Shown here piece after piece: positions 1,189 to 32,874 of a DNA stretch of 64,000 bases (the stretch's first letter is position 1; each line of letters starts with the position of its first letter). The stretch is from contig CBDCQT010000012.1 of assembly GCA_965220745.1 (NCBI GenBank), positions 352,001 to 416,000 of the forward strand, given 5' to 3'. Under the pieces are notes generated by a model, which saw nothing but the letters and a program-made list of their open reading frames with translations, searched no databases and was not told where the DNA came from. A program made the translations under genes and the position numbers. The DNA comes from Alphaproteobacteria bacterium. Its GTDB lineage: Bacteria > Pseudomonadota > Alphaproteobacteria > UBA828.

Positions 1189-2226
1189 TTACTTCTTCAG
1201 GCGGGTCCACATGGTGTCGTAGACCTCCTGGGTCGCCTGATCGCACACCGCGACGAACGTGCCGGCGGGCGCATCGGCAGGCGGAACGGACTCGGGCTGG
1301 CTGGCCAGTTCCGGATCGAGATGCGGAGTCACGCCCTCGACGCCCGCCGCATAGCGCGCGAAGTTGGTGACCGCGGCGATGTTCTCCGGCTCCAGCAGGA
1401 AGTCCATGAACTTGATCGCGCTGGCCCGGTTGGGCGCGTCCTTCAGCAGCACGACGTTGTCCATCCAGACGACGTAGCCCTGGCGCGGATAGGCGTATTC
1501 GATGTTGGCGCCTTCCGCCCGCGCCTTGGCGCCGAAGCCGTTCCAGATCATCCCCACGGCGGCATCGCCGGAGACCAGCACGTCCTTGGCGCCGTCGGAG
1601 TTGAAGGAAGCCCAGTGCGGCTTGGCCGCCTGCAGCAGCGCATCGAGCTGCTTGAGCTGCTCGCGGTCGTTCGAGCACTGCGGAATGCCGAGATGCAAGG
1701 CGGCCAGCAGCATGACCTCGCCCTGGGAATCGAGGACGTTGATCTTGCCCTTCAGCTCGTCCGGCGGGTCATAGACGATGCTCGTGTCGTTGATGTCGCC
1801 TTGATAGACGTCCCGGTTCACCGAGAAGCTGGTCGAACCCCACTGATAGGGGATCGAGTGCATCCGGCCCGGATCGAAGGGCACGTCCACCCACTGCGGC
1901 TCGATGTTGCCCCTGTTGGCAAGCTCGCCCTCGGCAATGGTGTCGAGCATGCCTTCGCCGATCATGATCTCGACCATGTAGTCGCCCGGCACCGCCACAT
2001 CGTAGGAGCCGAGCTTGCCGGCCTTGAGCGAGGCCAGCATCGCCTCGTTGGAATCGAAGGTGTCCATGGTCACTTCGATCCCGGTCTCGGCCGCGAACTT
2101 GTCGAGCAGCTCCTGCGGGATGTACTCGAACCAGTGGTAGATCGAGAGTTTCTCCTGAGCCTGTGCCGCGCCTGCGACAAAGGTCAGGGCTAACGCCGCT
2201 ATTCCGGCTTTGAGTAAGGTCCGCAT
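1189..2226 (-). CDS. potD: Polyamine (PotD/PotF-family) ABC substrate-binding protein
   Basis: Signal peptide ending AQA; YHWFEYIP, TFDSNE, SIPYQWG, WMDNVV motifs. Confidence 0.85.
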   Translation of the reverse strand: MRTLLKAGIAALALTFVAGAAQAQEKLSIYHWFEYIPQELLDKFAAETGIEVTMDTFDSNEAMLASLKAGKLGSYDVAVPGDYMVEIMIGEGMLDTIAEGELANRGNIEPQWVDVPFDPGRMHSIPYQWGSTSFSVNRDVYQGDINDTSIVYDPPDELKGKINVLDSQGEVMLLAALHLGIPQCSNDREQLKQLDALLQAAKPHWASFNSDGAKDVLVSGDAAVGMIWNGFGAKARAEGANIEYAYPRQGYVVWMDNVVLLKDAPNRASAIKFMDFLLEPENIAAVTNFARYAAGVEGVTPHLDPELASQPESVPPADAPAGTFVAVCDQATQEVYDTMWTRLKK

Positions 2227-2261: not shown

Positions 2262-3083
2262 TTACGCCTCCGCCTTCGTTCCAGGCCGCCCGTAACGGCT
2301 GATGAAATAGGACAGCGTGACGATCAGGATCGAGACGGAGAGCATGATGGTGCTGAGCGCCATGATGTCGGGTTTGATCCCCTGCTTCACGGCTCCGAAG
2401 ATCGCCGTGGGCAGGGTTTCGATCCCGGCGCCCTTGATGAAATTGGTGATGATGAAATCGTCCAGCGAGATGATGAATGCCAGCAGAAAGCCCGCGAGGA
2501 TTCCGGGCGCCATCAATGGCATGAGAACGCGCAGGAAGGCCTGGAACCGGCTCGCATACAAGTCCTGCGCAGCCTCCTCGTAACTGCCGTCGATCCCCTG
2601 CAGGCGGGCCGCAATCGGCAGGTAAGCAAAGGGAATACAGAAGACGATGTGCGCCACGAGGATCGAGAGATAGCCGAGCGTGAAGCCGATGGCGCTGAAG
2701 AACACCAGCGTCGCCACGGCGGTGACGATCTCCGGCACCATGATCGGCATGCTGATCAGCGCGAGGTTCAGCGCCTTCCCTTTGAAAGCCCCGCCCCGCA
2801 CCATGGCCACCGCAGCGGCCGTCGCGATGATGGTACTGGCGACGGCGGCTGAGAGCGCAATGGTGAGCGAGTTCCAGGCGGCGTCCTTGAACTTGGCCGA
2901 TTCCGGCCCGGTGAAGATTTCCATGTACCAGCGGAAGCTGAACCCGCCCCAGCGGGTGATGGAGAGCGAGTCGTTGAAGCTGTAGACCATCACCACCAGG
3001 AGCGGCGCGTAGAGCACCACCAGGCAGAGGATCGTGATCGGCAGGAAGCCGGGGTAGCGTTTGATGTTGATCCTTTGCCGCAT
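2262..3083 (-). CDS. potC: Polyamine ABC permease PotC-like
   Basis: [23 protein letters not shown] (EAA loop), SLDDFII; start placed at MRQRINIK. Confidence 0.85.
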
Positions 3084-3084
3084 C

Positions 3085-4011
3085 TCAGGCGGCCTGCGCG
3101 CTGCGCCGTGCCTGCCGGCGCGCATAGATGAAGAGCGCGATGAGCACGAGGGAGAGCAGGATCATCGACGCCGCAGCGCCGAAGGGCCAGTTGCCGGCGT
3201 TGCCCTTGAACTGCTCTTCGATCAGCGAGCCGATCAGGAAGTTCTTGGCGCCGCCCAGCAGGTCCGGCGCGAGGAAGGCGCCGAGGCTCGGCACGAAGAC
3301 CAGGATGCAGCCGGCCACGATGCCGGGCCACACGATGGGCAAGATGACCTTGTACAGGATCGTCCAGCGATTCGCGTAGAGGTCGGCCGCCGCTTCGGAC
3401 AGCGCAAAGTCGTAGCGCTCCACCGAGGCATAGATCGGCAGCACCATGAAGGGCAGGTACGAGTAGAACAGCCCGAGCTGCACCGCGAAGTCGGTGTTGA
3501 TGAGCGCGATGGGCTCGCTGATGACGCCCAGGCCCATCAGGGCTTCGTTGAGCGGCCCGTTGTCCCGGATCAGGAACTTCATCGAGACCGTGCGGATCAG
3601 CAGGTTCACCCAATAGGGCACCGTCACCAGGAAGAGCCACATCGAGCGCGTCGCGGGCGAGCGCGTCGCGATGAAGTAGGCGGTGGGGAAGCCGATGATG
3701 AGGCAGAGCAGCGTCGCGACGGCCGCCTGGATGATCGAGCGCACGAAGATGACGATGTAGGTCCACTCTATCTGCGGCGGCTCGTCGCCGAAGAGGCCAC
3801 GGTCGAAGATGAACTGGTCGTAAGCCGCGAGCGAGAACTCCCAGATTACCCCGCCCCGGAACTCCTTCGTCAGGAAGGAGTAGGCCAGCATCATCAGCAC
3901 CGGCGCCACCAGGAAGAAGCCGATGATCACCCAGGTCGGAATCAGCAAGGGGGTGCGCACCGGCGCGAAGGTGCGGGAGACCGCGCGCGTGCTGGCGAGC
4001 TCGCCGGCCAT
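3085..4011 (-). CDS. potB: Polyamine ABC permease PotB-like
   Basis: [25 protein letters not shown] motifs. Confidence 0.85.
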
Positions 4012-5099
4012 CAGTCCACCAGGAGCCTGGCGCCGCCGGGCGCGATGGCGAGACCCACGCGATCGCCGTTGCGGAAGGACGTCGTGTCGCTGCCGACGTT
4101 CTGCGCGCGCACCAGGACATCCGGTCCCTCATCCAGCCGGACGCCGTACTGGATGTCGGTGCCAAGGTAGACGATCTGGTCCACCACGCCGGTGAGGCCG
4201 GCGCTGCTCTCCGCCTCGGGCACGAGCGAGAGGCGCTCCGGGCGGATCAGCACGTGCGCGGCCGCGCCGTCCTGCGGCGGTGTGCCGGCGGCCTCGCAGG
4301 GAAACACCGCGCCGTTGGGCAGGCGGCTATGCCAGGCGCCGTCCGGCCCTCGCTGCACGGTCACGTCGAGGACGTTGGTCTCGCCGATGAAGTCGGCCAC
4401 GAAGCGGTCGTTAGGCGCCTCGTAGATTTCGTGTGGCGTCCCCACCTGCCGGATCTCGCCCGCCGACATCACGGCGATCCGGTCCGACATCGTCAGCGCC
4501 TCCTCCTGGTCGTGGGTGACGAAGACGAAGGTGATGCCGGTTTCCTCCTGAATCTGCTTCAGCTCGATCCGCATCGCCTGGCGGAGTTTGAGGTCGAGCG
4601 CGGACAGCGGCTCGTCGAGCAGGAGCACCTTGGGCCGGGGCGCCATGGCGCGGGCGAGCGCGACCCGCTGCTGCTGCCCGCCGGAGAGCTGCGCTGGCCG
4701 CCGCGCCGCGAGGTCGCCGAGCTTCACCAGGTCCAGAATGCGGCCGGTCTGGTCCTCGATATCGGCCTTGCTCCAGCCGAGGCGGCGCATTCCGAAGGCC
4801 ACGTTCTCCGCCACCGTCATGTGCGGGAAGAGCGCGTAGTGCTGGAAGACCGTGTTGATCGGGCGCCGGTTGGGCGGCAGCGTCCCGATGTCCTCGCCGT
4901 AGAGCAGGATTTCGCCTTCGGTGATTTCCTCGAAGCCCGCGATCAGGCGGAGCAGGGTGGTCTTGCCGCAGCCGGACGGCCCGAGCAGGGTGAAGAACTC
5001 GTTGTCCCGGATCGTCAGCGACACGCCGGCGAGCGCCGTCACCGCGCCGAAGCGCTTGACGGCGTTGCGCACGTCGATGGCGATGTCTTGCTCGGACAA
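4011..5099 (-). CDS. potA: Polyamine ABC ATP-binding protein PotA-like
   Basis: Walker A GPSGCGKT, LSGGQQQR, LLLDEP, TOBE-like C-terminus. Confidence 0.9.
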   Translation of the reverse strand: MSEQDIAIDVRNAVKRFGAVTALAGVSLTIRDNEFFTLLGPSGCGKTTLLRLIAGFEEITEGEILLYGEDIGTLPPNRRPINTVFQHYALFPHMTVAENVAFGMRRLGWSKADIEDQTGRILDLVKLGDLAARRPAQLSGGQQQRVALARAMAPRPKVLLLDEPLSALDLKLRQAMRIELKQIQEETGITFVFVTHDQEEALTMSDRIAVMSAGEIRQVGTPHEIYEAPNDRFVADFIGETNVLDVTVQRGPDGAWHSRLPNGAVFPCEAAGTPPQDGAAAHVLIRPERLSLVPEAESSAGLTGVVDQIVYLGTDIQYGVRLDEGPDVLVRAQNVGSDTTSFRNGDRVGLAIAPGGARLLVD

Positions 5100-5129: not shown

Positions 5130-6068
5130 CTAGTGGAGAGGGATGTTCGGCCCGGTCAGGGTCTTGAGCGCGTAGTCGGGCTCGTCGACTCTGGAGAAGC
5201 CGACCCTGGCCAACCACTCGTCCGTGGAAAGCCCGAGGATCTCCGTTTCCGACGTCAGGTTGGTGAACGCGCCGGAGGGCAGCGTCACGTAGGGGGCGCA
5301 AGCGAGCGCACAGCCCACGTGATTCTTCGGAACGTGGGACGCCTTCCAGCCGATGTAGATCTTCTTGTAGCGCGCGCCCTGATTCTCGCCGCAGAGATAT
5401 GCCGCATAGGCGATCCTGTTGAGCCTGTTGTCGAGCCTGGTTCTCACCGATTCTTCCTCGTCTCCCGCGAGGTGCATAATTCCCGTGTCTTCCATGAACA
5501 GGCACGCGTGATTGTCGCGATCTTCCGCGATCGCAAAGCCGAGCGCGCACCAGATCCACATGTTGCCGTCCGAGACCATGCTCGTGCGGTACTTTTCCGC
5601 ACAGACGACCATGGCCCCTTCCTGCGGCGGGAAATGCCGCGCGTCGGCGACGCCGAAGAGTTGCCGGGTCGCGTCGCGCAGCGGAATCAGGGAGTAAATC
5701 GGAATGTTCTCGATGCGGCCTACGGGATACGTCTTGCCGATGCGGGAATCGATCGCCAGGTCGTAACCCCAAATCGCCCCGTTGACGCCGCTGAACGACG
5801 ACGCCTGCAGCATATTAACCTGGCCGATATAGGAATCGTTACATTCCGCGCGGTCGTAGGACACGATCTCGGCCATGCCCTGGTCCAGGTCCTCCTCGAA
5901 CGGAAAACCGGGAAACTGTTCCAGGTTTACCGCGCCTGTGGAAAGCAGGATGGTCGAGATGTAGGACCCCGGTTGACCCGTGGCCGTCGGCTCCTGATAT
6001 CCCCCGCAGCTGCCCGCCGTCGTGTTGCGACAGTTCCGAACGATCTCTTCTATACGAGCGTCAGCCAT
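5130..6068 (-). CDS. hdcA: Pyruvoyl-dependent histidine decarboxylase proenzyme homologue
   Basis: IVSYDRAE, YIGQVNM..ASSFSG (Ser90-Ser91 autocleavage site), CAEK and FMEDTG match my recollection of Lactobacillus/Clostridium HdcA motifs. Confidence 0.8.
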   Translation of the reverse strand: MADARIEEIVRNCRNTTAGSCGGYQEPTATGQPGSYISTILLSTGAVNLEQFPGFPFEEDLDQGMAEIVSYDRAECNDSYIGQVNMLQASSFSGVNGAIWGYDLAIDSRIGKTYPVGRIENIPIYSLIPLRDATRQLFGVADARHFPPQEGAMVVCAEKYRTSMVSDGNMWIWCALGFAIAEDRDNHACLFMEDTGIMHLAGDEEESVRTRLDNRLNRIAYAAYLCGENQGARYKKIYIGWKASHVPKNHVGCALACAPYVTLPSGAFTNLTSETEILGLSTDEWLARVGFSRVDEPDYALKTLTGPNIPLH

Positions 6069-6080
6069 CGCGTCGTTCCT

Positions 6081-6842
6081 TCAGGCCGTGAATCCGAGCC
6101 GCCTGCCGAGATCGGCAGCGGCCTCGGCCAGTTTCTGCTTGATGCGGGTGGGCTCCATGGGGCGGAAGCGGTCCGCGAGCCCGGTGATGCCGACCGAATA
6201 GAGGACGTAGCCGCCGTTTACGCGGATCGGATGGCCGTAGCTCAGCACGCCGGCATCGAGCTCGTTGTCGCAGACCGCCACGCCGTCCGCACGGATCTGC
6301 GCGAGCTCGTCGAGGATGTCGGTTTCCTCGACCTTGGTCTTGTCCGTGAAGCGCGTGCGCGGGCGCGACAGGTAGCGGGCGACGAAGGCCTCGTCCTGAA
6401 ACGCGAGGAGCGCCTTGCCGCTGGCCGCCGCGTGCAAGGGCAGTTGGCGCCCCGGCTGCACGAAGGCGCGGTCCGAGCCCGAGGGCTGCTCCATCAGCAC
6501 GGATTCCGCGAAGTCGCCGTTCAGCCGGGCCAGATGGGCGGTCTCGCCGAACTCCGCCACGAGATCGTCGAGGACCGACTTGGCGAGGCCCGCATAGCCA
6601 GCGCGGTCCATGGTCGTGTGCAGCAGGGTCTGCAGGCGCGGCCCGGTCACGTAGCTCTTGGTGCCGGGCGCGCTGCGGAGCAGGTCGAGGTCGGCGAGGC
6701 CGCGGATCAGGCGATGCGCCGTCCCCGGCTGCAGGTCCATCTCCCGCGCGATGTCGGTGAGCGTCAGGCCGGTCTTGGCCCGCGCAACCGTCTCGAGGAC
6801 CCGGATGTACCGGCCGAGCGGCTTGTCGTTGCTATCGCTCAT
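6081..6842 (-). CDS. IclR-family transcriptional regulator
   Basis: HTH LTLTDIAREMDLQPGTAHRLI; PLHAAASGKALLAF effector domain. Confidence 0.9.
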   Translation of the reverse strand: MSDSNDKPLGRYIRVLETVARAKTGLTLTDIAREMDLQPGTAHRLIRGLADLDLLRSAPGTKSYVTGPRLQTLLHTTMDRAGYAGLAKSVLDDLVAEFGETAHLARLNGDFAESVLMEQPSGSDRAFVQPGRQLPLHAAASGKALLAFQDEAFVARYLSRPRTRFTDKTKVEETDILDELAQIRADGVAVCDNELDAGVLSYGHPIRVNGGYVLYSVGITGLADRFRPMEPTRIKQKLAEAAADLGRRLGFTA

Positions 6843-6862: not shown

Positions 6863-9184
6863 TTACGACGCATCGCGCTGCTGCAACGCCGTCACCACGC
6901 GCTCCGGCGTGATCGGCATCTCGAACACGCGCACGCCGATGGCGTCGGCGACCGCGTTCGCGATGGCGGGTGCAACGGCGGTCATGGCCGGCTCGCCGAT
7001 ACCCTTGGCGCCGAAGGGCCCGACGCCGCTGCGCGATTCGAGGATGATGCACTCGACGTTCGGCATGTCCATCGCCGTCGGCATCAGGTATTCGCTGAAC
7101 GACGGCGTGACCAGCCGGCCCTCCTCGTAGAGCATCTCCTCGCTGAGAGCGTAGCCCTGTCCGTTCTGAGCGCCGCCCTGGATCTGGCCTTCGACCGCCG
7201 CCGGGTTGATGCACTGGCCAACGTCGTGGGCGGCGACGCTCTTCAGCACCTCGACCTCGCCGGTCTCCACATCGACCGAGACCTCGACCGCGTGGGCGCC
7301 GTAGGCATAGTCCGGGTGGGCCTGGCCCTGCCCGGTCTCGGGATCGAGAAAGTCGCCGAAGGGCGCGCGGAAGATCGCAAGCTCCGAGCGGTGGATGCCC
7401 TCGGCCGCGCAGGTGCGCACCAGATCGACCAGCGGCATGCGCTGCTCCGGCTTGTCGATGACGAAGACCTCGTTGAAGGCCATGTCGATCTCGTCCGGCG
7501 CGACGCCGAATTCTTGGGCCGCGCGTTCGGCGAGGCGGGCGCGCAGACCCTCGGCCGCCTGCTTGGCGGCATTGCCGGTCATGTAGAGCGCGCGCGTCGC
7601 CGTGGTGGTGCCGGCGAGCGGGGTGACGGCGGAATCGCTGTTGTAGATGACGACGTTGTCGAGGGTGACGCCCAGCACCTCCACCGCGATCTGGCCGAGC
7701 GCGGAGATCTGCCCGGCGCCGATGTCGGTGACGCCGGAGCGCACCACCACGGTGCCGTCCATCTCAACGCCAACCCAGGCCTCCGAGGTGTCGTGCAGGA
7801 AGGTGAGGCGGCCATAGCTCTGCTGGTAGCAGGCGAGGCCGCGGCCGATCCGGATCGGCCCGTCGGAGGCAGTGGGCTCGCCCAGCCCGGCCCAGGCCTT
7901 CTCCGCGCACTGCTCGGTCCAGATCGCGCTCGGCGGCACGAAGCCCGTGGACATGGGCTCGCCGGTCTTCAGGAAGTTCCGGCGCCGGAGCTCCAGGCGG
8001 TCGATGCCGAGCGTGTTGGCGATCTCGTCCATCTGCTGCTCGTAGGCTGCGCAGGCCTGCAGCGCGCCGAAGCCCCGGAAGGCGCTGGTGTACATGTTGT
8101 TGGTCGCCACGGCCTTGGCGAAGACATTGAGGTTGTCCACCCGGTAGGGGCCGGGCGCCGCCACCAGCGCGTAGAGGATGACGTAGGGGCTCAGGAACAC
8201 GTAGGCCCCGGCGTCAGCGATCATCTGCACGTCGAGGGCCGTGATCTTGCCGTCGTTCGTCACGCCGGTGCGGTAGGTCAGGATGAAGGGGTGGCGCTTG
8301 CCGTGGCCCACGAACGAATCCTCGCGCGAGTATTCCAGCCGCACCGGCCGCCCGGTCTGCTTGGCGAGCAGCGCGAGATAGACCTCGACGGTCAGGTCCT
8401 CCTTGCCGCCGAAGCCGCCGCCCACCAGTGCGCCGCGCACGCGGACCTTGTTGTGGGGCACACCGAGGGCATCGGCGATGGGCCGGAAGTGCTCGATCAC
8501 CTGGGTCGAGACCCGGATGTTGACCACGTCGTTCTCGTCAACCCAGGCGAGGCCCACCTCCGGCTCCAGGAAGGCGTGCTCCTGGAAGGGCGTCCTGTAG
8601 GTGTTCTCGACGATCAGGTCGGCCTCGGCGAAGCCCGCCTCGGCATCGCCCTTCTTGATCTTGCGCTCGGCGACGATGTTGTCGCTGCCATAGACCAGCG
8701 GCGCGCCTGGCTTCAGCGCTTCCAGGGTGTCGTAGACGCCGGGGATCGGCTCCAGCGCAAACTCGATGAGCTCCGCCGCGTGGTCGGCGATGTCGCGGGT
8801 CTCCGCCGCGATCAGCGCCAGCGGCTCACCGAAGTAGCGCACCCGGTCCTTCACCAGAATCGGCTGGTCGGTGTCCAGCCGCTTCTGGCCGGTCTGGCCG
8901 GGGATGTCGGTGGCCGCCGTGCGGTCGGCGAGGTCGTCGGCGGTGAGCACGCAGGCGACGCCCCGGAGCGCCCGTGCCTTCGACACATCGAGTCGGACAA
9001 GCCGGGCGCTCGCGATGTCGGCGCGGAGCACCCGCATGTGCAGCATGTTCGGCATCACGTAATCGCCGGCGTAGGGCGTGCGGCCCGTGACCTTGCCCGG
9101 CGCATCGGTGCGGGTCAGCGGCTTGCCGACCTGCCGAAACTGGACGTTGGCCAATGTCCCCGGATCCATGTCGGTGTGGGTCAT
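6863..9184 (-). CDS. Xanthine dehydrogenase-family molybdopterin-binding subunit
   Basis: GGGFGGK, AFRGFG, DIGAG, GAKGIGEP (catalytic Glu). Confidence 0.9.
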   Translation of the reverse strand: MTHTDMDPGTLANVQFRQVGKPLTRTDAPGKVTGRTPYAGDYVMPNMLHMRVLRADIASARLVRLDVSKARALRGVACVLTADDLADRTAATDIPGQTGQKRLDTDQPILVKDRVRYFGEPLALIAAETRDIADHAAELIEFALEPIPGVYDTLEALKPGAPLVYGSDNIVAERKIKKGDAEAGFAEADLIVENTYRTPFQEHAFLEPEVGLAWVDENDVVNIRVSTQVIEHFRPIADALGVPHNKVRVRGALVGGGFGGKEDLTVEVYLALLAKQTGRPVRLEYSREDSFVGHGKRHPFILTYRTGVTNDGKITALDVQMIADAGAYVFLSPYVILYALVAAPGPYRVDNLNVFAKAVATNNMYTSAFRGFGALQACAAYEQQMDEIANTLGIDRLELRRRNFLKTGEPMSTGFVPPSAIWTEQCAEKAWAGLGEPTASDGPIRIGRGLACYQQSYGRLTFLHDTSEAWVGVEMDGTVVVRSGVTDIGAGQISALGQIAVEVLGVTLDNVVIYNSDSAVTPLAGTTTATRALYMTGNAAKQAAEGLRARLAERAAQEFGVAPDEIDMAFNEVFVIDKPEQRMPLVDLVRTCAAEGIHRSELAIFRAPFGDFLDPETGQGQAHPDYAYGAHAVEVSVDVETGEVEVLKSVAAHDVGQCINPAAVEGQIQGGAQNGQGYALSEEMLYEEGRLVTPSFSEYLMPTAMDMPNVECIILESRSGVGPFGAKGIGEPAMTAVAPAIANAVADAIGVRVFEMPITPERVVTALQQRDAS

Positions 9185-9678
9185 GGTGCACCTCCCTCGG
9201 CGCGCATGTCGTCGGCCGCGTCGGCGATCGCCTCGAAGATCTTGGTGTAGCCGGTGCAGCGGCAGAGATTACCGCTCAGCCCTAGGCGAATGTCCTCCTC
9301 GCTCGGCTCCGGGTGCTCGTCGATGATCGCCTTGGCCGCGATGATGATGCCGGGAATGCAGTAGCCGCATTGCGCGGCGCCGCCGTCGGCGAACGCCTTC
9401 TGCAGCGGATGCGGCGAGTCCAAATCACCGAGGCCGGAGACCGTGGTGATCTCCTTGTCGGCCGCCATCCAGGCCAGCGTCAGGCAGCTGTCCACGGCCA
9501 TGCCGTCGAGCAGCACGGCGCAGGCGCCGCAGTCGCCCTTCTCGCAGCCGCACTTTACCTCCATGTGGCCGAGGTGCCGCAGCGCTTCGAGAAGCGTGCG
9601 ATGGGCGGGGAAGCGCCCTTCCTCCTCGCGGCCGTTGATGCGGAGCGTGATGGTCCTTGTCTCAGGCATGAGTGTCAC
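9181..9678 (-). CDS. XDH-family 2x[2Fe-2S] subunit
   Basis: GCEKGDCGAC, QCGYC, NLCRCTGY; start may be the ATG at 9669. Confidence 0.92.
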   Translation of the reverse strand: MTLMPETRTITLRINGREEEGRFPAHRTLLEALRHLGHMEVKCGCEKGDCGACAVLLDGMAVDSCLTLAWMAADKEITTVSGLGDLDSPHPLQKAFADGGAAQCGYCIPGIIIAAKAIIDEHPEPSEEDIRLGLSGNLCRCTGYTKIFEAIADAADDMRAEGGAP

Positions 9679-9682
9679 TCCC

Positions 9683-10549
9683 TCAGGCCAGCCGATCCCA
9701 CGCCTGGGAAACCAGGCGCCGGGTGAGGGCTTCGACCGTGTGGCGGCGGTAGCCAGCGGAGGCCCGGATGTCGTCGATGGGGGTGCAGGTGTCCGCCGCC
9801 GCCTCCGCCGCCGCGTCGATGAGCGCTGGCGTCAGCGTCTGGCCTTCCAGCACCGCCTCCGCCTCTTTGACGCGGCGCACGACGGGCGCGACGGAGGCGA
9901 GCGCGATCCGCGCCCTGGTGCAGGTGCCGTCCGATACCGACAGCGCCACCGCCACGCCGGTGACGGTGATGGCATCGCCCTTGCGCCGCGCGAGCTTGTA
10001 GAAGGTGTTCGCCGAGTTCTCCGGCAGCCGCGGCCATGAAATCCGGGTGATCAGCTCGTCCGGCCGGCGCGCGTCCTGCTTGTAGCCGAGGTAGTAGTCG
10101 TCCAGCGCCAGTGTCCGCGTGCCCGACGTGCTCGCCAGCGTCAGCTCGGCATCGAGCACGAGTAGCGGCGGCACCAGGTCCGCTGCGGGCGAGCCGCTCG
10201 CGATGTTGCCGGCGACCGTGCCGGTGTTGCGCACCATCAGGCCGCCGAAGAGGCGCGCGGCCTCGATCAGCGACGGTGCCTCCCTTGCGATCTCGGGCGA
10301 GCGCAGCAGGTCGCTCACCGTGGTGCGGCCGCCGATGGAGATGCGCTCCGGCCCGAACGCCATGCCGAGCAGCTCGTCGACCTCGCCGAGGCCCACCATC
10401 CGGTCCGGCCGCTCGCGCTTCGCGCGAATGTCGACGATCAGGTTCGTGCCGCCCGCGATGGGGAGCACGGTCTCGCCGCCGCCGTTCGCGAGCGCCGTGA
10501 GGGCGCCGTCCAGGGTCGTGGGAATGTCCAGTTCGAAGGGCGCGTACAT
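9683..10549 (-). CDS. XDH-family FAD-binding subunit
   Basis: AGGTNL, VRNTGTVAGN, PIDDIRASAGYR. Confidence 0.9.
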   Translation of the reverse strand: MYAPFELDIPTTLDGALTALANGGGETVLPIAGGTNLIVDIRAKRERPDRMVGLGEVDELLGMAFGPERISIGGRTTVSDLLRSPEIAREAPSLIEAARLFGGLMVRNTGTVAGNIASGSPAADLVPPLLVLDAELTLASTSGTRTLALDDYYLGYKQDARRPDELITRISWPRLPENSANTFYKLARRKGDAITVTGVAVALSVSDGTCTRARIALASVAPVVRRVKEAEAVLEGQTLTPALIDAAAEAAADTCTPIDDIRASAGYRRHTVEALTRRLVSQAWDRLA

Positions 10550-10574
10550 CGCTACGTCTCCCGATTCAGCCGCG

Positions 10575-11357
10575 CTACACGTCCCAGCCGCCATCGACCG
10601 TGATGGCTTGGCCGGTGATCTGGCGGCTGTCCTCGCTCGCCATGAACAGCACGGCGTTGGCCACGTCCTGGCAGGTGGTCACGCGCTTCAGGCACATCTC
10701 CTGCACGTATTCGTCGTACACCTCGTCGATGGTCCAGCCGCGCACGCGGGCTTTCTCCTCGCAGAGCTTCTGCATGCGCGGGGTCTCGACGATGCCGGGG
10801 CAGACCGCGTTGACGTTGACGTTGTACTTGCCGACCTCCAGCGCGACCGTGCGCGTGATCCCGCGCACCGCCCATTTGGAGGCGCTGTAGGCTGTGCGCA
10901 TGGCGTAGCCGCGCAGGCCCGAGGTGCCGCCGATGTTGACGATCTTGCCGCTCTTCTGCGCGATCATGGTCGGCACCACGTGCTTGATGGGCAGGAAGGT
11001 GCCGATCTCGTTGGCCCTGATGACGTAGTCGAAGTCGGCCACGTCGATGTCCTGCACCGGCGTCTCGATGGGCCCGGTGACGCCCGCGATGTTGACCAGG
11101 ATGTCGATGCGCCCGCCGAAGGCTTCGAGGGCCTTGTCGACCACCGCCTTGACCTCGGCATCTTCGGTCACGTCGCAGGCCACGACGTGGGCCTGCCGCC
11201 CCAGCGCGCGCACGTCCGCAGCGACCTGTTCGAGCGGCTGGGTGTCGCGGGCGGTCAGCACGACATCGGCGCCCTCGCGCGCGAGTGTCGTCGTGATGGC
11301 CGCGCCCATGCCCTTCGCGGCGCCGGTGACGATCGCCTTCTTGCCATCCACTTTCAC
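10575..11357 (-). CDS. SDR family oxidoreductase
   Basis: TGAAKGMG, NIAG, YSASK. Confidence 0.92.
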   Translation of the reverse strand: MKVDGKKAIVTGAAKGMGAAITTTLAREGADVVLTARDTQPLEQVAADVRALGRQAHVVACDVTEDAEVKAVVDKALEAFGGRIDILVNIAGVTGPIETPVQDIDVADFDYVIRANEIGTFLPIKHVVPTMIAQKSGKIVNIGGTSGLRGYAMRTAYSASKWAVRGITRTVALEVGKYNVNVNAVCPGIVETPRMQKLCEEKARVRGWTIDEVYDEYVQEMCLKRVTTCQDVANAVLFMASEDSRQITGQAITVDGGWDV

Positions 11358-11382: not shown

Positions 11383-12978
11383 TCATTGGCCTTTCGTCTC
11401 GGGTTGCCCGTAACCGCCGCCGCCGCAGCTCTCGACGATCACCACGTCGTCCCTGTCGAGGCGGAGGTTCGCCTTGCCCGGCATGTCCTCCCGACTGCCG
11501 TCCGCATGCGCGATGGTGACGCGGAAGGGGGCTCCGTCCTCGCCGCCCTGCAGGCCGTAAGGCGGCACCACGCGGCGCTCGAACATCGAGGTCACCGACA
11601 TGTCGTCGGTGAGCACCCGGTATTCGCGATGCAGACCCTCGCCGCCCTGCTGCCGGCCAGCGCCGCCCGAGCCCTGGCGCAGGCGCTGGCTCTCAATGCG
11701 GATGGGGAACTCGGCCTCCACCACCTCGGCCGGGGTGTTCATCACGTTGGACATGTGCACGCGCACCACCGGGGCGCCGTCGCGGTCGTGCCGCGCGCCT
11801 TCGCCGCCGCCGTGGACCTCATAGAGCGTGGTCCAGGCGCCGTCGGCCCGCCTGCCGCCGAACAGCACCAGGCCCGACGTGGTCGGCCCGCCGGCCGAGA
11901 TGCGCTCGGGACCCACGGCTTCGAAGGCCTTGAACACGGCATCCGCGATCCGCTGCGAGGTCTCGTGGTTGCCGCCCACCACGGGGCTCTCCCGGCCGGG
12001 GTCGAGCAGGGAGCCGGGGCGGGTCACGATCTCCAGCGGCCGGTAGCAACCGCCGCTCGGCTGGATGTCGGAGCCAAAGAGCGTCTTCACCACGTAGAAG
12101 ACCGAGGCCGCGGCGATGAAGGGCGTGGTGTTCACCGGCCCCCGCGCCGCGTCTTCGGTCCCGGAGAAGTCAAAGCGGGCGCCGTCGCCTTCGATGGTGA
12201 CGCGCACGCGAACGGCAACCGGCCCGCCGCCGCCGGCATCGTCATCGAGCCAGTCCGCGCCTTCGTAGGTGCCGTCGGGAATGGCCGCGAGCGCCGCCCG
12301 CATCTGCGCCTCGGCCCGGTCGTGAATCGCGGCGATGGCGGCCAGCACCGTCTCCCGCCCGTGCTCGGCGCAGATGTGCTGCACCCGCTCGTCTGCTGCC
12401 CGGCTGGCGGCGACCTGAGCCAGGATGTCGCCCTCGCGCTCGTCGGCGCCCCGCACGTTGGCGCAGATCATGTCCAGCTTCTCGCGGTCCGGCCCGGCGA
12501 CGGTGAAGAGTCGGAAAGGCGGGATGCGCAGCCCCTCCTGCCAGGCGTCGGTGGCGCCGGCGACGTAGCTGCCGGGCACCGCGCCGCCGATATCCGCCCA
12601 ATGGGCGAGGCTCGCCGCGAACGCGACGATAGAGCCATCCACGAAGATCGGCCGGATCGCCTTCACGTCGGGCAGGTGGTTGCCGCCCACCTCGGGCAGG
12701 TTGAGGAACCAGACATCGCCGGGCTCCAGCCTCTCCCTGGGCACCCGCTTCAAAAACTCGCGCACGGTAAAGCTCATCACCCCCATGTGCATGGGGATGT
12801 CGCGGCCCTGGGCGATGAGGTGGCCGTCGGCATCGGTCAGCGCGGACGAGAGATCGCCGGCCTCGCGCAGCAGCGGCGAACGGGCCGAGCGCATGACCAC
12901 GAGCGACATCTCCTCCGCCGTCGCCGACAGCGCGTGGCGGATGACTTCGAGTGTGACCGGATCCACGGCGCCGCTCAT
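11383..12978 (-). CDS. Hydantoinase B/oxoprolinase family protein
   Basis: DPVTLEV, GGNHLPD, AHWADIGG, EGLRIPP, GGGGYG. Confidence 0.9.
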   Translation of the reverse strand: MSGAVDPVTLEVIRHALSATAEEMSLVVMRSARSPLLREAGDLSSALTDADGHLIAQGRDIPMHMGVMSFTVREFLKRVPRERLEPGDVWFLNLPEVGGNHLPDVKAIRPIFVDGSIVAFAASLAHWADIGGAVPGSYVAGATDAWQEGLRIPPFRLFTVAGPDREKLDMICANVRGADEREGDILAQVAASRAADERVQHICAEHGRETVLAAIAAIHDRAEAQMRAALAAIPDGTYEGADWLDDDAGGGGPVAVRVRVTIEGDGARFDFSGTEDAARGPVNTTPFIAAASVFYVVKTLFGSDIQPSGGCYRPLEIVTRPGSLLDPGRESPVVGGNHETSQRIADAVFKAFEAVGPERISAGGPTTSGLVLFGGRRADGAWTTLYEVHGGGEGARHDRDGAPVVRVHMSNVMNTPAEVVEAEFPIRIESQRLRQGSGGAGRQQGGEGLHREYRVLTDDMSVTSMFERRVVPPYGLQGGEDGAPFRVTIAHADGSREDMPGKANLRLDRDDVVIVESCGGGGYGQPETKGQ

Positions 12979-14990
12979 AGGCCGGCTCCGGTGGCGATGT
13001 GGAGATGGCCCGCGTCGTCAGCGGTAAGCGTTGCGCCCGGCGGCACGACCACGGTCGACCACGCATCGTCGACGATGACTGGCCCCTCCAGCGAACTGTC
13101 CGGGCTCAGGCCCGCGCGGTCGTAGCGCGGCGTCGGCACCGGCTCGCCGGACTCGAACGTCGCCGGCAGCGTCTTGATGGGCGAGAGCGCTTCGTTGGTC
13201 TTGGCGGCGGGAGAATGGACCGCGCCATTGCTGGGCGCCGAGACTCGCATCCTAATCGAGACCAGCTCCCACGGCTCCTCGGTGGCGAAGCCGTAGAGCG
13301 CCCGGTGGCGCTCCATGAAGGCGCGGCCCAGCTCCAGCGGGTCGTCGAGCGCGGCGTCCGCGATCTCGATGGCGTAGCTCTGGCCGCTGTAGCGGACCGA
13401 CGCGACCTCCTCCACCGCAAGTGCCGCGTCCTCATGACCGGCCGCGGCGAGCGGCGCGGCGAGGGTCGCGCGGAGCTCCCGCCGCACGCCGTCCACGCGC
13501 GCCTGATCCCACGAGTCGGCGGCCATGCGGAGCGTGCGCTGCTGCGCGTAGCTCATCTCCGCGCCGACACAGCCCAGCGCCGAGAACATGCTGGAATGCG
13601 CCGGCACCACCACCTTGTCGATGGAGAAGGCGCGGGCCAGCGCCACGGCGTGCATGGGGCCCGCGCCGCCGAAGGCGAGCAGCGTGCAACTGCGCCCGTC
13701 GACGCCGCGCTCCACGGTCACTCGGCGCAGCGCCCGCAGCATCGCCGCGTTCGCGACCCTGACGACGCCCAGAGCCGCAGCCTCGGGCGTCATGTCCATG
13801 GCGGCGCTGAGCGGCGCGATCACGTCGTGGGCCGCGCGCGCATCCAGGTGCACGTCGCCGCCCAGCACACGGTCCGTGGCCATGTATCCCAGCAGCAGGT
13901 TGGCGTCGGTCACGGTCGGCCGGTCGCCGCCCTTAGCGTAGCAGGCCGGCCCTGGCACGGCGCCGGCGCTCTCCGGCCCCACCATCAGCGAGCCGTGATC
14001 GAGCCGCGCGATGGAGCCGCCGCCGGCCCCGATGGACTCGACGGCCACCATGGGCTGCCGCAGGGGCCGCCCGCCGAGGGAGCGGTCGCTCGCGATCTGC
14101 GCCGCGCCGTCGAGGATCAGGCAGACATCGGTGGTGGTGCCGCCCATGTCGAAGCTGATGGCACGCTCGATTCCGAGCGCGCGGGCCATGCGGCCCGCCG
14201 CGGCAACGCCGGCGGCGGGGCCCGAGGCGGCGAGACCGAGCGGCAGGTCGCGCAGCGCCGCAGGCGAGGCCATGCCGCCGGCGGAGTGGAAGAGGTGCAG
14301 CCGGGAGGCCTCCGGTTTCGCCGCTTCCAGGTCGTCCATGTACGCGGCTGCCAGGGGCATGACGCCGGCGCTCAGTGCCGTGGTCGCCGTCCGCTCGTAC
14401 TCGCGGGCCTCGGGATTGACCCGGTGCGAGAGCGCGACGAAGGGGAAGCGCGCGCGCAGCCGCTCGCCCAGGGCCTCCTCGTGGGCGGGGTTGGCGTAGG
14501 AATGCAGCAGCGAAACGGCGACCGCCTCGGCATCGCTCGCAGCGACGCGTCCGATCGCGTCCGCCACTGAGTCCGGGTCCAGCGCGGTCATGACCCGGCC
14601 GTCGTGGTCGAGCCGCTCGGTCACCTCGAAGCGGCGTTCGGCCGGCACTTGGGGTGTGAGCTTCGGCGGCAGGTCTAGCCGGTAGAGGTGGCGCCGGTTC
14701 TGGCGCCCGATGGCGAGCGTGTCCGAGAACCCATGCGTGGCGATCAGCGCGACCCTGGCGTGGTCGCCCTGGATGATGGCGTTGGTGACGATGGTGGTGC
14801 CGTGGATCAGGTCGTCCACGTCCGCCCATTGGAGATCGACCGCGCCGAGCGCCGCCACCAGGCCCGCGATGCGGTCGTCGGTGCGGGAGGGGACCTTCGC
14901 GGCTCTCACCTCGCCGCGCGCCCGGTGATGGGCGATCACGTCGGTGAACGTGCCGCCGACATCGATACCGACTTGCCATCCCTTCGGCAC
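12975..14990 (-). CDS. Hydantoinase A/oxoprolinase family protein (ATP-binding)
   Basis: GIDVGGTFTD, HGTT, SGPAAG, DMGGTTTD, GAGGGS; GTG start at 14990 inferred. Confidence 0.9.
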   Translation of the reverse strand: MPKGWQVGIDVGGTFTDVIAHHRARGEVRAAKVPSRTDDRIAGLVAALGAVDLQWADVDDLIHGTTIVTNAIIQGDHARVALIATHGFSDTLAIGRQNRRHLYRLDLPPKLTPQVPAERRFEVTERLDHDGRVMTALDPDSVADAIGRVAASDAEAVAVSLLHSYANPAHEEALGERLRARFPFVALSHRVNPEAREYERTATTALSAGVMPLAAAYMDDLEAAKPEASRLHLFHSAGGMASPAALRDLPLGLAASGPAAGVAAAGRMARALGIERAISFDMGGTTTDVCLILDGAAQIASDRSLGGRPLRQPMVAVESIGAGGGSIARLDHGSLMVGPESAGAVPGPACYAKGGDRPTVTDANLLLGYMATDRVLGGDVHLDARAAHDVIAPLSAAMDMTPEAAALGVVRVANAAMLRALRRVTVERGVDGRSCTLLAFGGAGPMHAVALARAFSIDKVVVPAHSSMFSALGCVGAEMSYAQQRTLRMAADSWDQARVDGVRRELRATLAAPLAAAGHEDAALAVEEVASVRYSGQSYAIEIADAALDDPLELGRAFMERHRALYGFATEEPWELVSIRMRVSAPSNGAVHSPAAKTNEALSPIKTLPATFESGEPVPTPRYDRAGLSPDSSLEGPVIVDDAWSTVVVPPGATLTADDAGHLHIATGAGL

Positions 14991-15055
14991 GGCGCCGCCT
15001 CCGGATGCCGGGTCGCCGGGCGGCCTTTCTTTGCGGACCGTTACGGCAACCGGAA

Positions 15056-15091
15056 TTATCGAATATCGAAAGTTATTTCGATATTCGATAA
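15056..15091. promoter_or_regulatory. Perfect 16-bp inverted repeat, probable operator
   Basis: ttatcgaatatcgaaa-gtta-tttcgatattcgataa; AT-rich; about 65 bp upstream of the operon's first gene. Confidence 0.7.
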
Positions 15092-15167
15092 AGATGCGCC
15101 GTCTCCCGGCGTCCGTCAACAGGAAATTTCGACAGTGCTGTGGGGTGGCCGGTGACGAGGTGACCCC

Positions 15168-15621: not shown

Positions 15622-16854
15622 CTAAGACGCTCCTTGTCCAGGCTCCGTCGCGTTGACGAGCGCGGCCATGTTTCCATACGGGTGGCGGTTCTCGTACATC
15701 TGCTGATGCGCCTCGCCGATTTCGTCGAACGAGAAGGTGTGAGACAGGCAGGGATCGACCTTCCGGTCCATGATCATCCGGTTTACGGCCGCGGCCTGCT
15801 CGTCGTTCGACAGGTGGCTGCCCTGAAACCGCTTCTGCCGCATCCAGTGGTAGCGAAGGTCGAGTGTCGCGGTGTACCCGGTCGTTCCGGCGCAAATGAC
15901 GATCATGCCGCCTGTCGCGCACAGGAATCCCGAGGTTGGCAGCGTCGCCTCGCCGGGGTGCTCAAAGACGATGCGGGGGCTCGCCTTCTCTCCAGCCGCT
16001 TCCCAGAAGGCCTTGCCGAACGCCCGGGCGCCCTTGAACCACTGCCCCCAATCCTCGCTGCTCGTGTCAGGCATCGGACCCCAGTGGTCGAAATCGTTCC
16101 GGTTAATCACGCCGACGGCGCCGTGGTCGAGACAGAACTGCCGTTTCTCTCCATCGGACACGACTGCCACCGGTTTGCCGCCGTTTGCCGTCACGATCTG
16201 GAGCGCCAGCGCGCCGAGCCCGCCGGCGGCGCCCCACACCAAAACGTAGTCGCCCTCTTCGACGACGTTCGGCGACCAACCCATGAGCATTCGGTACGCA
16301 GTCGACGCACAGAGCAGGTAGCAGCCGGCGGCCTCCCACGAGAGATGCTTGGGCTTCGGCTGACACTGGTGAGATTGGGCCCGGGCAAACTGGCAGTAGC
16401 TGCCGTAATTGGTCTGGTAGCCCCAGATGCGCGTGCTTTCGGCGAGCATGGGGTCGCGTCCGGACAGCACCCACGGGTCGTCCGGCTCCCACCAACCGCT
16501 ATGGACGACGACTTCATCACCGGGGCGGACGTTTGTCACCTGATCGCCGACTGCGAACACGATGCCCGAGCAGTCGCTGCCGCCCGCATGAAAGTCCTCC
16601 GGCTCTCCCTTCCTCTGCCGGTCGGCGATGACATCGACGGGCGTGCCGAGGGCCGCCCAGACATTGTTGTAGTTGATTCCGGTTGCCATGACGTAGACGA
16701 GCACGTCGAGCGGACCGATTTCGGGGGTGTCGATGACTTCCCGCTGCCAAGCGTCCCTGGGTTCGCCGAAACGATCCTGGCGCACGAGGAACGCATGCAT
16801 CTTTTCCGGCACCTCACCCAGCGGCGGGCGATCGCCGAGATCATATAACTCCAT
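15622..16854 (-). CDS. ccr: Crotonyl-CoA carboxylase/reductase family
   Basis: [54 protein letters not shown]. Confidence 0.85.
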
Positions 16855-17078
16855 TTGCTTCCTCCCCTCACGCTCCGCGATCCACATTGGGGACGAAGCC
16901 GCAGGCACTAGGTCTTCACGCGATAACCCGCTATCAGCAGCGCGTGAGTGCTTAAGCTATTTCGATATCTCACTAATTGTCGAGTAAATCTGCTGCCATG
17001 CTCTCCCCAGAATTCGAGTCATCGCCGAAACCCTGCCGTCTCACACCATCGGCTTCGCCGATGCGGTCCCCGACTCCG

Positions 17079-17771
17079 CTACGCCGGTGTACCGGTCTGT
17101 GGGATCGGCAGTCCGAACAGGAAACGCCGGCTGCCCGCCAGCTCGCGGCGGCGCTTCAGGTCCATGGTGCAGTCCTCGGCGGCGTCCAGGGCGCGCACGG
17201 CGCTCTCGTAGAGCGGCAGCGCTGCGGCGACGGCGACGGAAGGCCGGATGCGCTCCACGGTGAAGTCCAGCTTCTCGCGCGCCTGCGCGATGGTGTAGCG
17301 GCCGTCCCGCACCCAATCGACGGTGATCCAGTCCAGGGTCTCCAGGAAGGAGAGCGAATCCGCCGCCTGCACGAAGTCGGCCTCCCAGCCGCCGCCGATC
17401 TCGTGCCGCAGGATGAGCCGGCGTACGCGCCGGATGAACGCCTCGTCCGGCGCCGGCGTGCGGCTGCGCAGCCATTCCTCCACGATGTTCGCAGACCGGG
17501 TGGAGTGCGCGAAGAGATAGTCGGGATCGTCGAAGCCGTTGGTCGGCGTGCTGGACGGCCCGCCGGGGAAGAATCGCTCGGCGTCATGCGTCAGCGCCGC
17601 GAACCTGAGCTCGGGCGAGGCCTCGGGGCAGATCTTGACGGTCCACACGCGTGTCGCGATCAGGTGCTCCAGTTGGTAGAAGCCGTCCAGCCATTCCATC
17701 GCGTCGTCTTCCAGCCGCGAGAGACCGGCGTTGGCATAGCGCCCGCGGGCGGGATACTCCATGTCGGTCAC
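17079..17771 (-). CDS. HD-superfamily metal-dependent hydrolase (DUF4202-like)
   Basis: H...LTHDAER...AHS...RHE...ADSLSF pattern; overlaps the coxL-like stop. Confidence 0.6.
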   Translation of the reverse strand: MTDMEYPARGRYANAGLSRLEDDAMEWLDGFYQLEHLIATRVWTVKICPEASPELRFAALTHDAERFFPGGPSSTPTNGFDDPDYLFAHSTRSANIVEEWLRSRTPAPDEAFIRRVRRLILRHEIGGGWEADFVQAADSLSFLETLDWITVDWVRDGRYTIAQAREKLDFTVERIRPSVAVAAALPLYESAVRALDAAEDCTMDLKRRRELAGSRRFLFGLPIPQTGTPA

Positions 17772-20143: not shown

Positions 20144-20631
20144 GGTGAGGTCTCGGACTCGTCCACGCCCAGGTACGCCTCCACCGCGCGCAGGATGTTC
20201 TCGTAGCCGGTACAACGACAGAGCACGCCGACAAGCTCTTCGCGGATCTCCGCGCGGGAGAGCGTGCGCCCGCTGGCCTTCAGGCTCTCCGCCAGCATCA
20301 GGAAGCCCGGCGTGCAGTAGCCGCACTGCAGCGCGTGATGCCGCTTGAAGGCCTCCTGCGCGGCGTTCAGGCGGTCGCCCTCGGCCAGGGCTTCGACCGT
20401 TGTTACCTCCGCGCCGTCCAGCTGCACGGCGAGCATGAGGCAGGACTTGATGGCGGCGCCGTTCACCAGGATCGTGCACATGCCGCAGACGCCTTGCTCG
20501 CAGCCGACGTGGGTGCCGGTCCAGCCCAGGCGATGACGCAAAAAGTCGGCCGCGTGCATGCGAACCGGCACCTCCGCCGACACCGCCTCGCCGTTCAGAC
20601 GGAAGGCGATGGCGCGCTCAGTGCCGCTCAA
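20140..20631 (-). CDS. Molybdenum hydroxylase 2x[2Fe-2S] small subunit
   Basis: GCEQGVCGMC, QCGYCTPG, LCRCTGY; TTG start overlapping the upstream stop. Confidence 0.9.
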   Translation of the reverse strand: MSGTERAIAFRLNGEAVSAEVPVRMHAADFLRHRLGWTGTHVGCEQGVCGMCTILVNGAAIKSCLMLAVQLDGAEVTTVEALAEGDRLNAAQEAFKRHHALQCGYCTPGFLMLAESLKASGRTLSRAEIREELVGVLCRCTGYENILRAVEAYLGVDESETSP

Positions 20632-32573: not shown

Positions 32574-32582
32574 GCGCGTATC

Positions 32583-32843
32583 ATGGCCGACATCCCGCTC
32601 GCCGTGCTGCTCGAGGGCGACTACGGCTACAAGGTGCAGGTGTTCGACACCGGCGACACCATGGCGGTGCTGGCGGAGAAGGTGGCCGACCAGGTCGCGG
32701 GCGTCCTGGTGGCGCCGTTCCCGCCCGAGGCGGTTCTCAGGGTCCGCGTGCAGGGCAGCGCAGACCCGCTGCCCGACGAGCTGACCATCGCCGACGCCGG
32801 CTTCGTCGAGATGGAGTCCGTGGAAATCTACCGCGCCGGCTGA
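32583..32843 (+). CDS. tmoB: Diiron monooxygenase gamma subunit (TmoB-like)
   Basis: IPL...EGDY..V.DT.DTM; 86 aa directly after alpha. Confidence 0.8.
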   Translation: MADIPLAVLLEGDYGYKVQVFDTGDTMAVLAEKVADQVAGVLVAPFPPEAVLRVRVQGSADPLPDELTIADAGFVEMESVEIYRAG

Positions 32844-32874
32844 ACCAGCCGCTGCGGGCAAGGAGAAGACGAGC

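Follow-up and report, generated by a model that had tools for sequence, protein, structure and literature searches.

We analysed a 64,000-nucleotide stretch of an alphaproteobacterial genome (positions 352,001 to 416,000 of contig CBDCQT010000012.1, assembly GCA_965220745.1, GTDB lineage UBA828; hereafter the window), in which a gene of the pyruvoyl-type histidine decarboxylase (HDC) family lies between a gene for an IclR-family regulator and the genes of a PotABCD-like importer. The HDC open reading frame (ORF) occupies exactly 5130–6068 on the minus strand, with an ATG at 6068 and a TAG at 5130–5132, and encodes a proenzyme of 312 amino acids (aa). An initial annotation of the window, in which the strand was unstated, had called the gene a pyruvoyl HDC homologue, and profile searches bore this out: PF02329 matched far beyond chance (E = 4.2e-45; 154.6 bits, cut-off 25), with residues 20–292 aligned to profile positions 19–292 of 294, and the alpha and beta chains of PDB entries 1hq6/1pya matched at E = 6e-22 and E = 2e-3, respectively. 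All four motifs that had been picked out earlier are present in the translation, namely ASSFSG (containing Ser90-Ser91), SYDRAE at residues 70–75, CAEK at 156–159 and FMED at 191–194, and the segment NMLQASSFSG corresponds to the conserved NM..ASSF.G serinolysis motif of the PF02329 family. An AlphaFold model (input alignment of 32 sequences) had a predicted local distance difference test score of 91.8 and a predicted template-modelling (TM) score of 0.91. Its top PDB match was 1pya_B (target-normalised TM 0.80, root-mean-square deviation 2.6 Å, 222 columns), with pyruvoyl arginine decarboxylases ranking next.

The protein shares its Pfam family, predicted fold and Ser-Ser motif with HdcA of Lactobacillus 30a (PDB 1PYA, 1HQ6, 1IBT-1IBW) and its Firmicute kin, and every mapped catalytic or histidine-binding residue is identical. 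In the pairwise alignment, Ile59, Tyr62, Asp63, Glu66 and Ser81/Ser82 of the Lactobacillus enzyme correspond to I68, Y71, D72, E75 and S90/S91 here, and Phe83, Lys155, Phe195, Glu197 and Asp198 to F92, K159, F191, E193 and D194. In the Lactobacillus enzyme, Asp63 (D72 here) binds the imidazole ring, and the residues reportedly have catalytic or substrate-binding roles (Gallagher et al. 1989). Across 32 aligned family members, I68, D72, E75, S91 and F92 were invariant, and S90 (near-invariant), K159, E193 and D194 were retained in at least 90%. The predicted self-cleavage site, the codons of Ser90-Ser91 (5796..5801, minus strand), aligns to Ser81-Ser82 of the Lactobacillus enzyme; cleavage there would convert Ser91 to the pyruvoyl group, with predicted chains of residues 1–90 (beta) and 91–312 (alpha). 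The HDC translation has no signal-peptide-like N-terminus. Three other family members (P0051, P0100 and P0114) carry long N-terminal extensions that resemble export signals, one with a twin-arginine-like RRGFLK motif, which suggests periplasmic or secreted HDC forms.

HDC is a single-copy gene in the genome and appears to be maintained as a functional protein. Ratios of nonsynonymous to synonymous substitution rates (dN/dS) against 11 same-genus orthologues were 0.03–0.17, indicating strong purifying selection, and none of the 17 genus copies (the window's own and 16 in 14 other genomes) has an internal stop. Sequences resembling ribosome-binding sites, AAGGAA and GGGAGG, precede the HDC and potA starts (AAGGAA lies before the HDC ATG), and a simple scan found no terminator-like site between HDC and its flanking genes. 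Contigs assembled from RNA libraries of three studies (Logan), which come from relatives 85–91% alike and carry no information on strand, level or transcript ends, span parts of HDC and bridge both the IclR–HDC junction (X15 records 6 and 7) and the HDC–potA junction (X17 record 20). We read these contigs as a weak hint of HDC transcription.

The initial annotation had also remarked, by eye, that the gene is somewhat less rich in guanine plus cytosine (GC) than its neighbours. The difference is real yet ordinary: HDC has a GC content of 0.612 (neighbours, 0.622–0.720) and a third-codon-position GC (GC3) of 0.808 (0.867–0.948 for 12 flanking genes), and GC3 values of 0.808 or lower occur in 16% of the genome's 3075 heuristically called ORFs (mean 0.862, s.d. 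0.057). Four further window genes have GC3 as low as HDC. We did not accept composition as evidence of recent transfer, as the gene's GC3 lies at the 16th percentile of genome ORFs.

The earlier placement of HDC between the IclR-family gene (6081..6830, minus; HTH_IclR and IclR_C) and the importer holds, with gaps of just 12 nt on the IclR side and 30 nt on the potA side. The importer comprises a PotA-like ATP-binding cassette (ABC) ATPase (4011..5099, minus; ABC_tran and TOBE_2), which scored 382 bits against the potA subfamily model TIGR01187 (cut-off 355.6), PotB-like (3085..4011, minus) and PotC-like (2262..3125, minus) permeases with BPD_transp_1 domains that are syntenic, the PotB-like gene in all genus loci, and a PotD-like periplasmic amine-binding protein (1189..2226, minus), whose best PDB match was E. 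coli PotD (197 bits). The four-gene architecture is that of E. coli PotABCD (PDB 1POT, 8Y5H), and both its aromatic box and the majority of its acidic ligand residues are kept: among 12 aligned positions that we take to be PotD ligand residues, nine are retained (W34, E36, Y37, Y85, E171, W229, W255, D257 and Y293). These residues fit a cationic amine ligand without identifying which one. Unlike E. coli PotD, the window's binding protein scored only 206 bits against the PotD equivalog model (cut-off 582).

To survey the neighbourhood across the genus, we searched the window proteins by tblastn against 15 genus loci from 14 genomes. The shared gene order is HydA-HydB-SDR-FAD-FeS-MoCo-IclR-HDC-PotA-B-C-D, in which the first six genes encode a hydantoinase/lactamase, a short-chain dehydrogenase/reductase (SDR) and a molybdenum hydroxylase with flavin adenine dinucleotide (FAD), iron–sulfur and molybdenum-cofactor (MoCo) subunits. 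HDC directly follows IclR in 14 of the 15 loci and directly precedes PotA in 13, a further locus stopping at a contig end just past HDC. All 17 genus HDC copies lie inside or beside this same island. The exception in order is genome G026: potABCD comes directly after IclR, a 706-aa gene is next in line, and the start of HDC lies 24 nt beyond that gene. One genome, G024, holds two whole-island copies including HDC (L027 and L031, on contigs C7 and C2), with HDC proteins 88% and 86% identical to the window's.

The 706-aa gene of G026 encodes a close homologue of histamine dehydrogenase. It scored 893 bits against 6de6 and 882 bits against 3k30, the solved histamine dehydrogenases of Rhizobium sp. 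4-9 and Nocardioides simplex, respectively; trimethylamine dehydrogenase gave 535 bits. It retains Gln65, Glu79, Trp267 and Asp358, residues that we take to separate histamine from trimethylamine dehydrogenase. A gene of this kind (698–706 aa) lies directly 3′ of potD on the same strand in seven of the 15 genus loci; with G026, where it sits between potD and HDC, linkage extends to eight of 15. It also directly follows potD on the metagenome contig L142. The dehydrogenases of these loci are 73–76% identical to the copy in the window's genome, which is encoded on another contig (G000:C11:472072-474165; 885 bits against 6de6). In G035, the closest relative of the window's genome, the gene is likewise away from the cluster. 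Three more paralogues of the histamine/trimethylamine dehydrogenase family, 42–54% identical to the G026 enzyme, occur at G000:C12:194192-203865, ~150 kb upstream of the window.

Pairing of this importer with a histamine dehydrogenase homologue also occurs outside the genus, in genomes whose clusters have no HDC. Of 400 further genomes, drawn evenly from across the class, 41 contain a dehydrogenase homologue at E ≤ 1e-180, and we fetched the flanks for 12 of these. In G149 the order is RidA, aldehyde dehydrogenase, PotABCD, dehydrogenase and CN-hydrolase. In G140 (L257, G140:C30:121000-139092), the gene order is flavin monooxygenase, aldehyde dehydrogenase, LysR regulator, dehydrogenase homologue, M20 hydrolase, aspartase-like lyase and PotABCD; the importer genes begin 3 kb downstream of the dehydrogenase gene, and the PotD is 72–73% identical to the window's. 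Judged by the imidazole-acetate pathway, this set resembles a full route from histamine to aspartate plus fumarate, making L257 a candidate for a complete histamine-to-fumarate cluster. Because the importer is repeatedly paired with histamine dehydrogenase, the ligand of the PotD-like protein is probably histamine, and the pairing suggests an amine ligand other than that of E. coli PotABCD.

In the window's genome (99.96% complete), urocanase (PF01175) had no match, in a search that was positive in six of 14 control genomes. With no urocanase and only a weak match to the aromatic ammonia-lyase family, the usual Hut pathway appears to be missing. We consider it probable, on sequence and gene-context grounds, that HDC makes cytoplasmic histamine that feeds a histamine-utilization route. 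The proenzyme would cleave itself at Ser90-Ser91 to yield a pyruvoyl enzyme, which would decarboxylate cytoplasmic L-histidine to histamine; PotABCD would import external histamine as a second supply; and histamine dehydrogenase would oxidize histamine to imidazole acetaldehyde, for further breakdown as a nutrient. HDC may have been inserted at the head of a pre-existing module of PotABCD and histamine dehydrogenase after horizontal acquisition. As there is no urocanase, such a route would let the cell use histidine while bypassing the Hut pathway. The initial annotation had proposed a repurposed enzyme, either feeding an amine into catabolism or acting on another substrate. Its first branch gains strong support from context, namely the linked dehydrogenase, the HDC-less importer–dehydrogenase pairs and the lack of urocanase; its second drew none, with all mapped histidine-binding and catalytic residues kept.

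Several observations weigh against histamine catabolism. Unlike HdcA of Lactobacillus 30a, the window's protein falls below the cut-off of the equivalog model TIGR00541 (hisDCase_pyru; 150.4 bits, cut-off 346.65) and is ~26–30% identical to characterised enzymes, in a subfamily that sits on a long stem apart from them. Because the TIGR00541 score is far under its cut-off, HDC is a PF02329 family member and not a close copy or equivalog of the characterised enzymes. No HdcB-like or histidyl-tRNA synthetase (HisRS) gene was seen in the cluster, where all genes belong to other families (no genome-wide HdcB search was made). In the window and in five of the 15 genus loci, potD is followed by a convergent gene for a thiamine-pyrophosphate (TPP) enzyme and the dehydrogenase is not adjacent; of the remaining genus loci, one showed neither gene and one is cut. 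The unlinked dehydrogenase of the window's genome departs from 6DE6 and 3K30 in that Glu replaces Gln65. Proteins of the PotD type bind many different amines, and the one here is changed at three of the 12 ligand positions (T35F, S83G and D168S). Only distant, scattered homologues (35–46% identity) of the downstream enzymes of G140 were found in the window's genome, the ammonia-lyase match (in two pieces, ~104 bits) makes another fate of histidine possible, and the RNA-library contigs give only weak evidence because such libraries can contain DNA.

Some of these features would suit a pyruvoyl decarboxylase with another amino acid as its substrate, basic or modified (for example, methyl-histidine), whose amine the cluster imports and oxidizes. 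An enzyme of this kind could account for the equivalog score, for a distinct and long-stemmed subfamily (Shimodaira–Hasegawa-like approximate likelihood ratio test (SH-aLRT) support 100, stem 0.71), for the differences at three of 12 positions from E. coli PotD and for the presence of a tyrosine-decarboxylase-like gene and a PvlArgDC gene beside HDC in sister-group members; moreover, some histamine dehydrogenases accept other amines. We nevertheless regard this as unlikely, as the residues that map to the Lactobacillus 30a histidine pocket are all identical, including Asp63 (D72), and the linked dehydrogenase is far nearer to histamine than to trimethylamine dehydrogenase, with the signature residues kept.

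We then compared HDC contexts across the family. Searches of the genome collection gave 80 loci, eight in the genus and 72 in others, and setting aside 14 near-duplicates left 58 non-genus loci, for which we examined the two ORFs closest to HDC on either flank (197 ORFs). In 19 of the 58, from Firmicutes, Fusobacteria, Bifidobacterium, Bacteroidota and others, an amino-acid permease adjoins HDC in the canonical antiporter arrangement. This frequency, and the fact that it is the sole experimentally established role of the family, favours a canonical function for the window's gene too, in which histidine is decarboxylated and histamine leaves through an unlinked antiporter, for acid resistance or proton-motive force. 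We consider that function highly improbable here. The earlier statement that there is no antiporter at the locus stands for the window, in that amino-acid permease and antiporter families were absent from the window ORFs scanned (unlinked antiporters were not searched for genome-wide); the neighbour of HDC is instead a binding-protein-dependent importer, eight of the 15 loci in the genus have a linked histamine-consuming dehydrogenase, and in the tree the window's clade stands apart from the permease-linked ones.

Most deep HDC clades sit in non-canonical contexts, beside kinases, transglutaminase-like genes and STAND-type regulators, and for this reason the characterised Firmicute role may be one of several for the family. 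The sensor kinases, Ser/Thr kinases and STAND-type regulators that adjoin HDC in other clades would be in keeping with histamine acting as a signal, inducer or biosynthetic building block and not as a catabolic intermediate, as would the PLP (pyridoxal phosphate)-dependent HDCs that supply histamine for siderophores in some proteobacteria. For the window's gene we judge this improbable: its cluster has no kinase, acyltransferase or siderophore-type gene, and its neighbours are an importer and a dehydrogenase.

The non-canonical contexts themselves are varied. In eight marine alphaproteobacterial loci (L044, L045, L047, L048, L057, L061, L071 and L073; HDC at ~10001-10850), hosted by Yoonia, Palleronia, Roseibium, Puniceibacterium and metagenome-assembled genomes (MAGs), a large BTAD and AAA_16 (STAND-like) regulator of 950–1350 aa lies beside HDC in divergent orientation, with no antiporter. 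These HDCs form a distinct clade (SH-aLRT 100), and in seven of the eight loci a transglutaminase-like gene (PF20085) is directly upstream of HDC. A Ser/Thr kinase–tetratricopeptide-repeat (TPR) gene adjoins HDC in four Acidobacteria loci (L042, L043, L074 and L078), and in five loci (L088, L107, L110, L111 and L113) from candidate phyla radiation (CPR) bacteria and some Gammaproteobacteria HDC is followed by a histidine kinase gene, three of the five kinases being of the HisKA_7TM type. A second survey, by tblastn of the cluster proteins over 151 loci outside the genus genome set (72 genome and 79 metagenome), recovered PotABCD with the dehydrogenase in L142 and L143 only, both of the genus clade. 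In another clade, represented by two metagenome contigs and a MAG of Anaerolinea, the gene directly downstream of HDC encodes a distant PotD-like protein (27–29% identity; L060:10001-16313, L146:225-2290 and L148:126-2150), and in L060 a hybrid GAF histidine kinase comes next; this arrangement may serve amine sensing.

With 280 clusters (50% identity; E ≤ 1e-3) among 1.84 billion representatives, the PF02329-type family is small, and its distribution around the window's genus is patchy. Of 20 other species in the genus, 15 carry HDC, and none of 28 other genomes of the order does (0/23 from nine other genera of the family and 0/5 from the order's other family), and PF02329 was absent from all 400 genomes of the class-wide sample. 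Three of the five genus genomes without HDC lack the whole island and one is merely 62% complete. In the fifth, G036 (100% complete), the island is present without HDC, and its histamine dehydrogenase gene contains an in-frame TAG, a coincidence that we count in favour of histamine utilization. At this locus (L127, G036:C2:2248000-2267999), where the interrupted dehydrogenase gene adjoins the island, the PotA and PotB alignments are shortened; in G036 the island's amine half may be in decay.

A tree of the family (IQ-TREE quick search, LG+G4; 110 sequences, of which 109 passed a length filter, with the genus then thinned to eight rows for a total of 101) grouped the genus with P0023 (68% identical) and with P0031, P0034 and P0036 (~50%) in a single clade (SH-aLRT 100, stem 0.71). 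The Firmicute, Fusobacteria and Bifidobacterium clade, which includes the Lactobacillus-type sequence, is separate (support 100, stem 0.72). We are unsure of the deeper branching order because of long branches. The data fit horizontal acquisition of HDC by the genus ancestor followed by vertical descent, a history suggested by the patchy distribution and not by composition. The context of HDC cannot be traced beyond the genus because the nearest outgroup loci, L140 and L141 (46–51% identity), have neither PotABCD nor the dehydrogenase beside HDC; of two members of the nearest outgroup, one lies by phospholipase-B-like and tyrosine-decarboxylase-like genes and the other by the PvlArgDC gene.

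On the other side of IclR, the window carries the second half of the island, all on the minus strand. A three-subunit molybdenum hydroxylase of the xanthine-oxidase family (6863..10594), with MoCo (6863-9184), 2Fe-2S (9181-9678) and FAD (9683-10594) subunits assigned by Pfam, had best named relatives, xanthine dehydrogenase included, that were all far under their cut-offs. Next to it lie an SDR gene (10575-11357; Pfam) and subunits B (HydB, 11383-12978; Pfam) and A (HydA, 12975-15119; Pfam) of an ATP-dependent hydantoinase/lactamase, for which the closest NCBIfam models were the caprolactamase alpha and beta subunits (435 and 261 bits, against cut-offs of 1000). Within the genus, both halves always occur together. 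Outside it, the Hyd-SDR-FAD-FeS-MoCo module (HydB 66–78% identical) was found in 12 of the 400 class genomes. We fetched nine of these loci, and all of them lack PotABCD, the dehydrogenase and HDC. Close homologues (57–82% identity) of all six module genes were present in five of the nine; two consisted of HydA-HydB-SDR, one being cut by the contig end and one having distant Mo-hydroxylase homologues (30–40%), and two of HydA-HydB alone. The five loci that keep the six-gene module as a unit are L275, L276, L278, L279 and L282. An IclR homologue (42–48% identity) lies beside the module in four of six non-genus loci without HDC and PotABCD, and two loci of the module also carry a Liv-type ABC importer.

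As each half occurs separately outside the genus, the island consists of two juxtaposed modules, HydAB-SDR-Mo-hydroxylase-IclR and HDC-PotABCD(-dehydrogenase). IclR most likely belongs to the Hyd/Mo-hydroxylase half, and we rejected the default reading of it as HDC's own regulator because it travels with the Hyd module in HDC-less genomes. That modules found apart elsewhere are joined here, that HDC is positioned differently in G026 and that the dehydrogenase has left the cluster in one sub-lineage would all be accommodated by a purely historical adjacency, in which horizontal transfer brought HDC into the island but its function is unconnected with that of its neighbours. We find this quite improbable, given that 17 of 17 genus copies lie in or beside the same cluster, on one strand, with gaps of 12–30 nt and no terminator-like site, that the relocated HDC of G026 sits 24 nt downstream of the histamine dehydrogenase ORF and that HDC is under strong purifying selection.

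The two halves could instead be tied more closely than histamine utilization alone would imply, with the entire 14-kb island forming one hitherto undescribed, Hut-independent pathway of histidine breakdown. Histamine, made inside the cell by HDC or imported by PotABCD, would pass to histamine dehydrogenase; the imidazole product would be hydroxylated without oxygen by the Mo enzyme and processed by the SDR; and the ring would be opened by the ATP-dependent hydantoinase/lactamase. The scarcity of G140-type downstream enzymes in the window's genome would allow the imidazole product to be handled by the Mo-hydroxylase, SDR and hydantoinase/lactamase instead. If true, such a pathway would replace the flavin monooxygenase route of Pseudomonas, give the imidazole ring a new fate and provide the first case of a pyruvoyl HDC acting in catabolism. 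We hold it to be conceivable though doubtful. The Hyd/Mo-hydroxylase module was not accepted as a demonstrated part of a histamine route; it exists without the amine module in at least five other genomes.

Pyruvoyl HDCs are known as partners of histamine exporters in acid resistance and food spoilage. If histamine utilization is the role of the window's HDC, an acid-resistance decarboxylase appears to have been recruited as a catabolic entry step. This organization differs from HdcA systems in having no HdcP antiporter, HdcB or HisRS gene nearby; an ABC importer and histamine dehydrogenase are found instead. The initial annotation had placed the characterised enzymes in Gram-positive fermenters. 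Homologues have, according to Mou et al. 2021 (PMC8465708), been surveyed in Gram-negative phyla already: hdcA-antiporter clusters are predicted there in Bacteroidota, Fusobacteriota, Actinobacteriota, Verrucomicrobiota and Proteobacteria, across six phyla in total. Because that work catalogued such homologues, a pyruvoyl HDC in a Gram-negative bacterium is not new in itself, and the window shares with it the occurrence of HDC homologues beyond Gram-positive fermenters, patchy through horizontal transfer. The clusters in that survey are defined by an adjacent amino-acid/amine antiporter and read as histamine secretors, whereas here no antiporter is present and the partners import and consume an amine. 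According to PMC8231116, the Pseudomonas hin system likewise combines histamine uptake and breakdown as a nutrient under a dedicated regulator, with HinA (an APC-type transporter), HinC (an aminotransferase), HinD (an aldehyde dehydrogenase) and HinFGHL. There, transport and entry rely on the APC transporter and aminotransferase, with no decarboxylase in the system; here we find an ABC importer, a flavin/Fe-S dehydrogenase and HDC as a proposed entry from histidine.

A full-text literature search, which left most subscription journals outside its coverage, turned up no paper that places a pyruvoyl HDC with an ABC importer or among genes of histamine catabolism such as a histamine dehydrogenase. 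If confirmed, histamine utilization through HDC would constitute a second bacterial route of histidine use and would supply a concrete candidate for an ABC-type histamine importer. It would also mean that genome surveys cannot identify a histamine secretor from an hdcA homologue alone.

Elsewhere in the window, past a crotonyl-CoA-reductase-like gene (15622-16908), a second xanthine-oxidase-family Mo subunit (903 aa) and a CoxG-like gene occupy 17768-21125 on the minus strand. In the region 31053-37073, two genes for subunits of soluble di-iron monooxygenases (Phenol_Hydrox family) are followed by an SDR gene and a further member of the hydantoinase-B family (723 aa); the region may be an acetone/alkene-type oxidation cluster. 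A urease cluster (UreD, UreG, UreF, UreE and the alpha subunit) lies at 39101-43702, and a DDE_3 transposase gene at 51951-52517.

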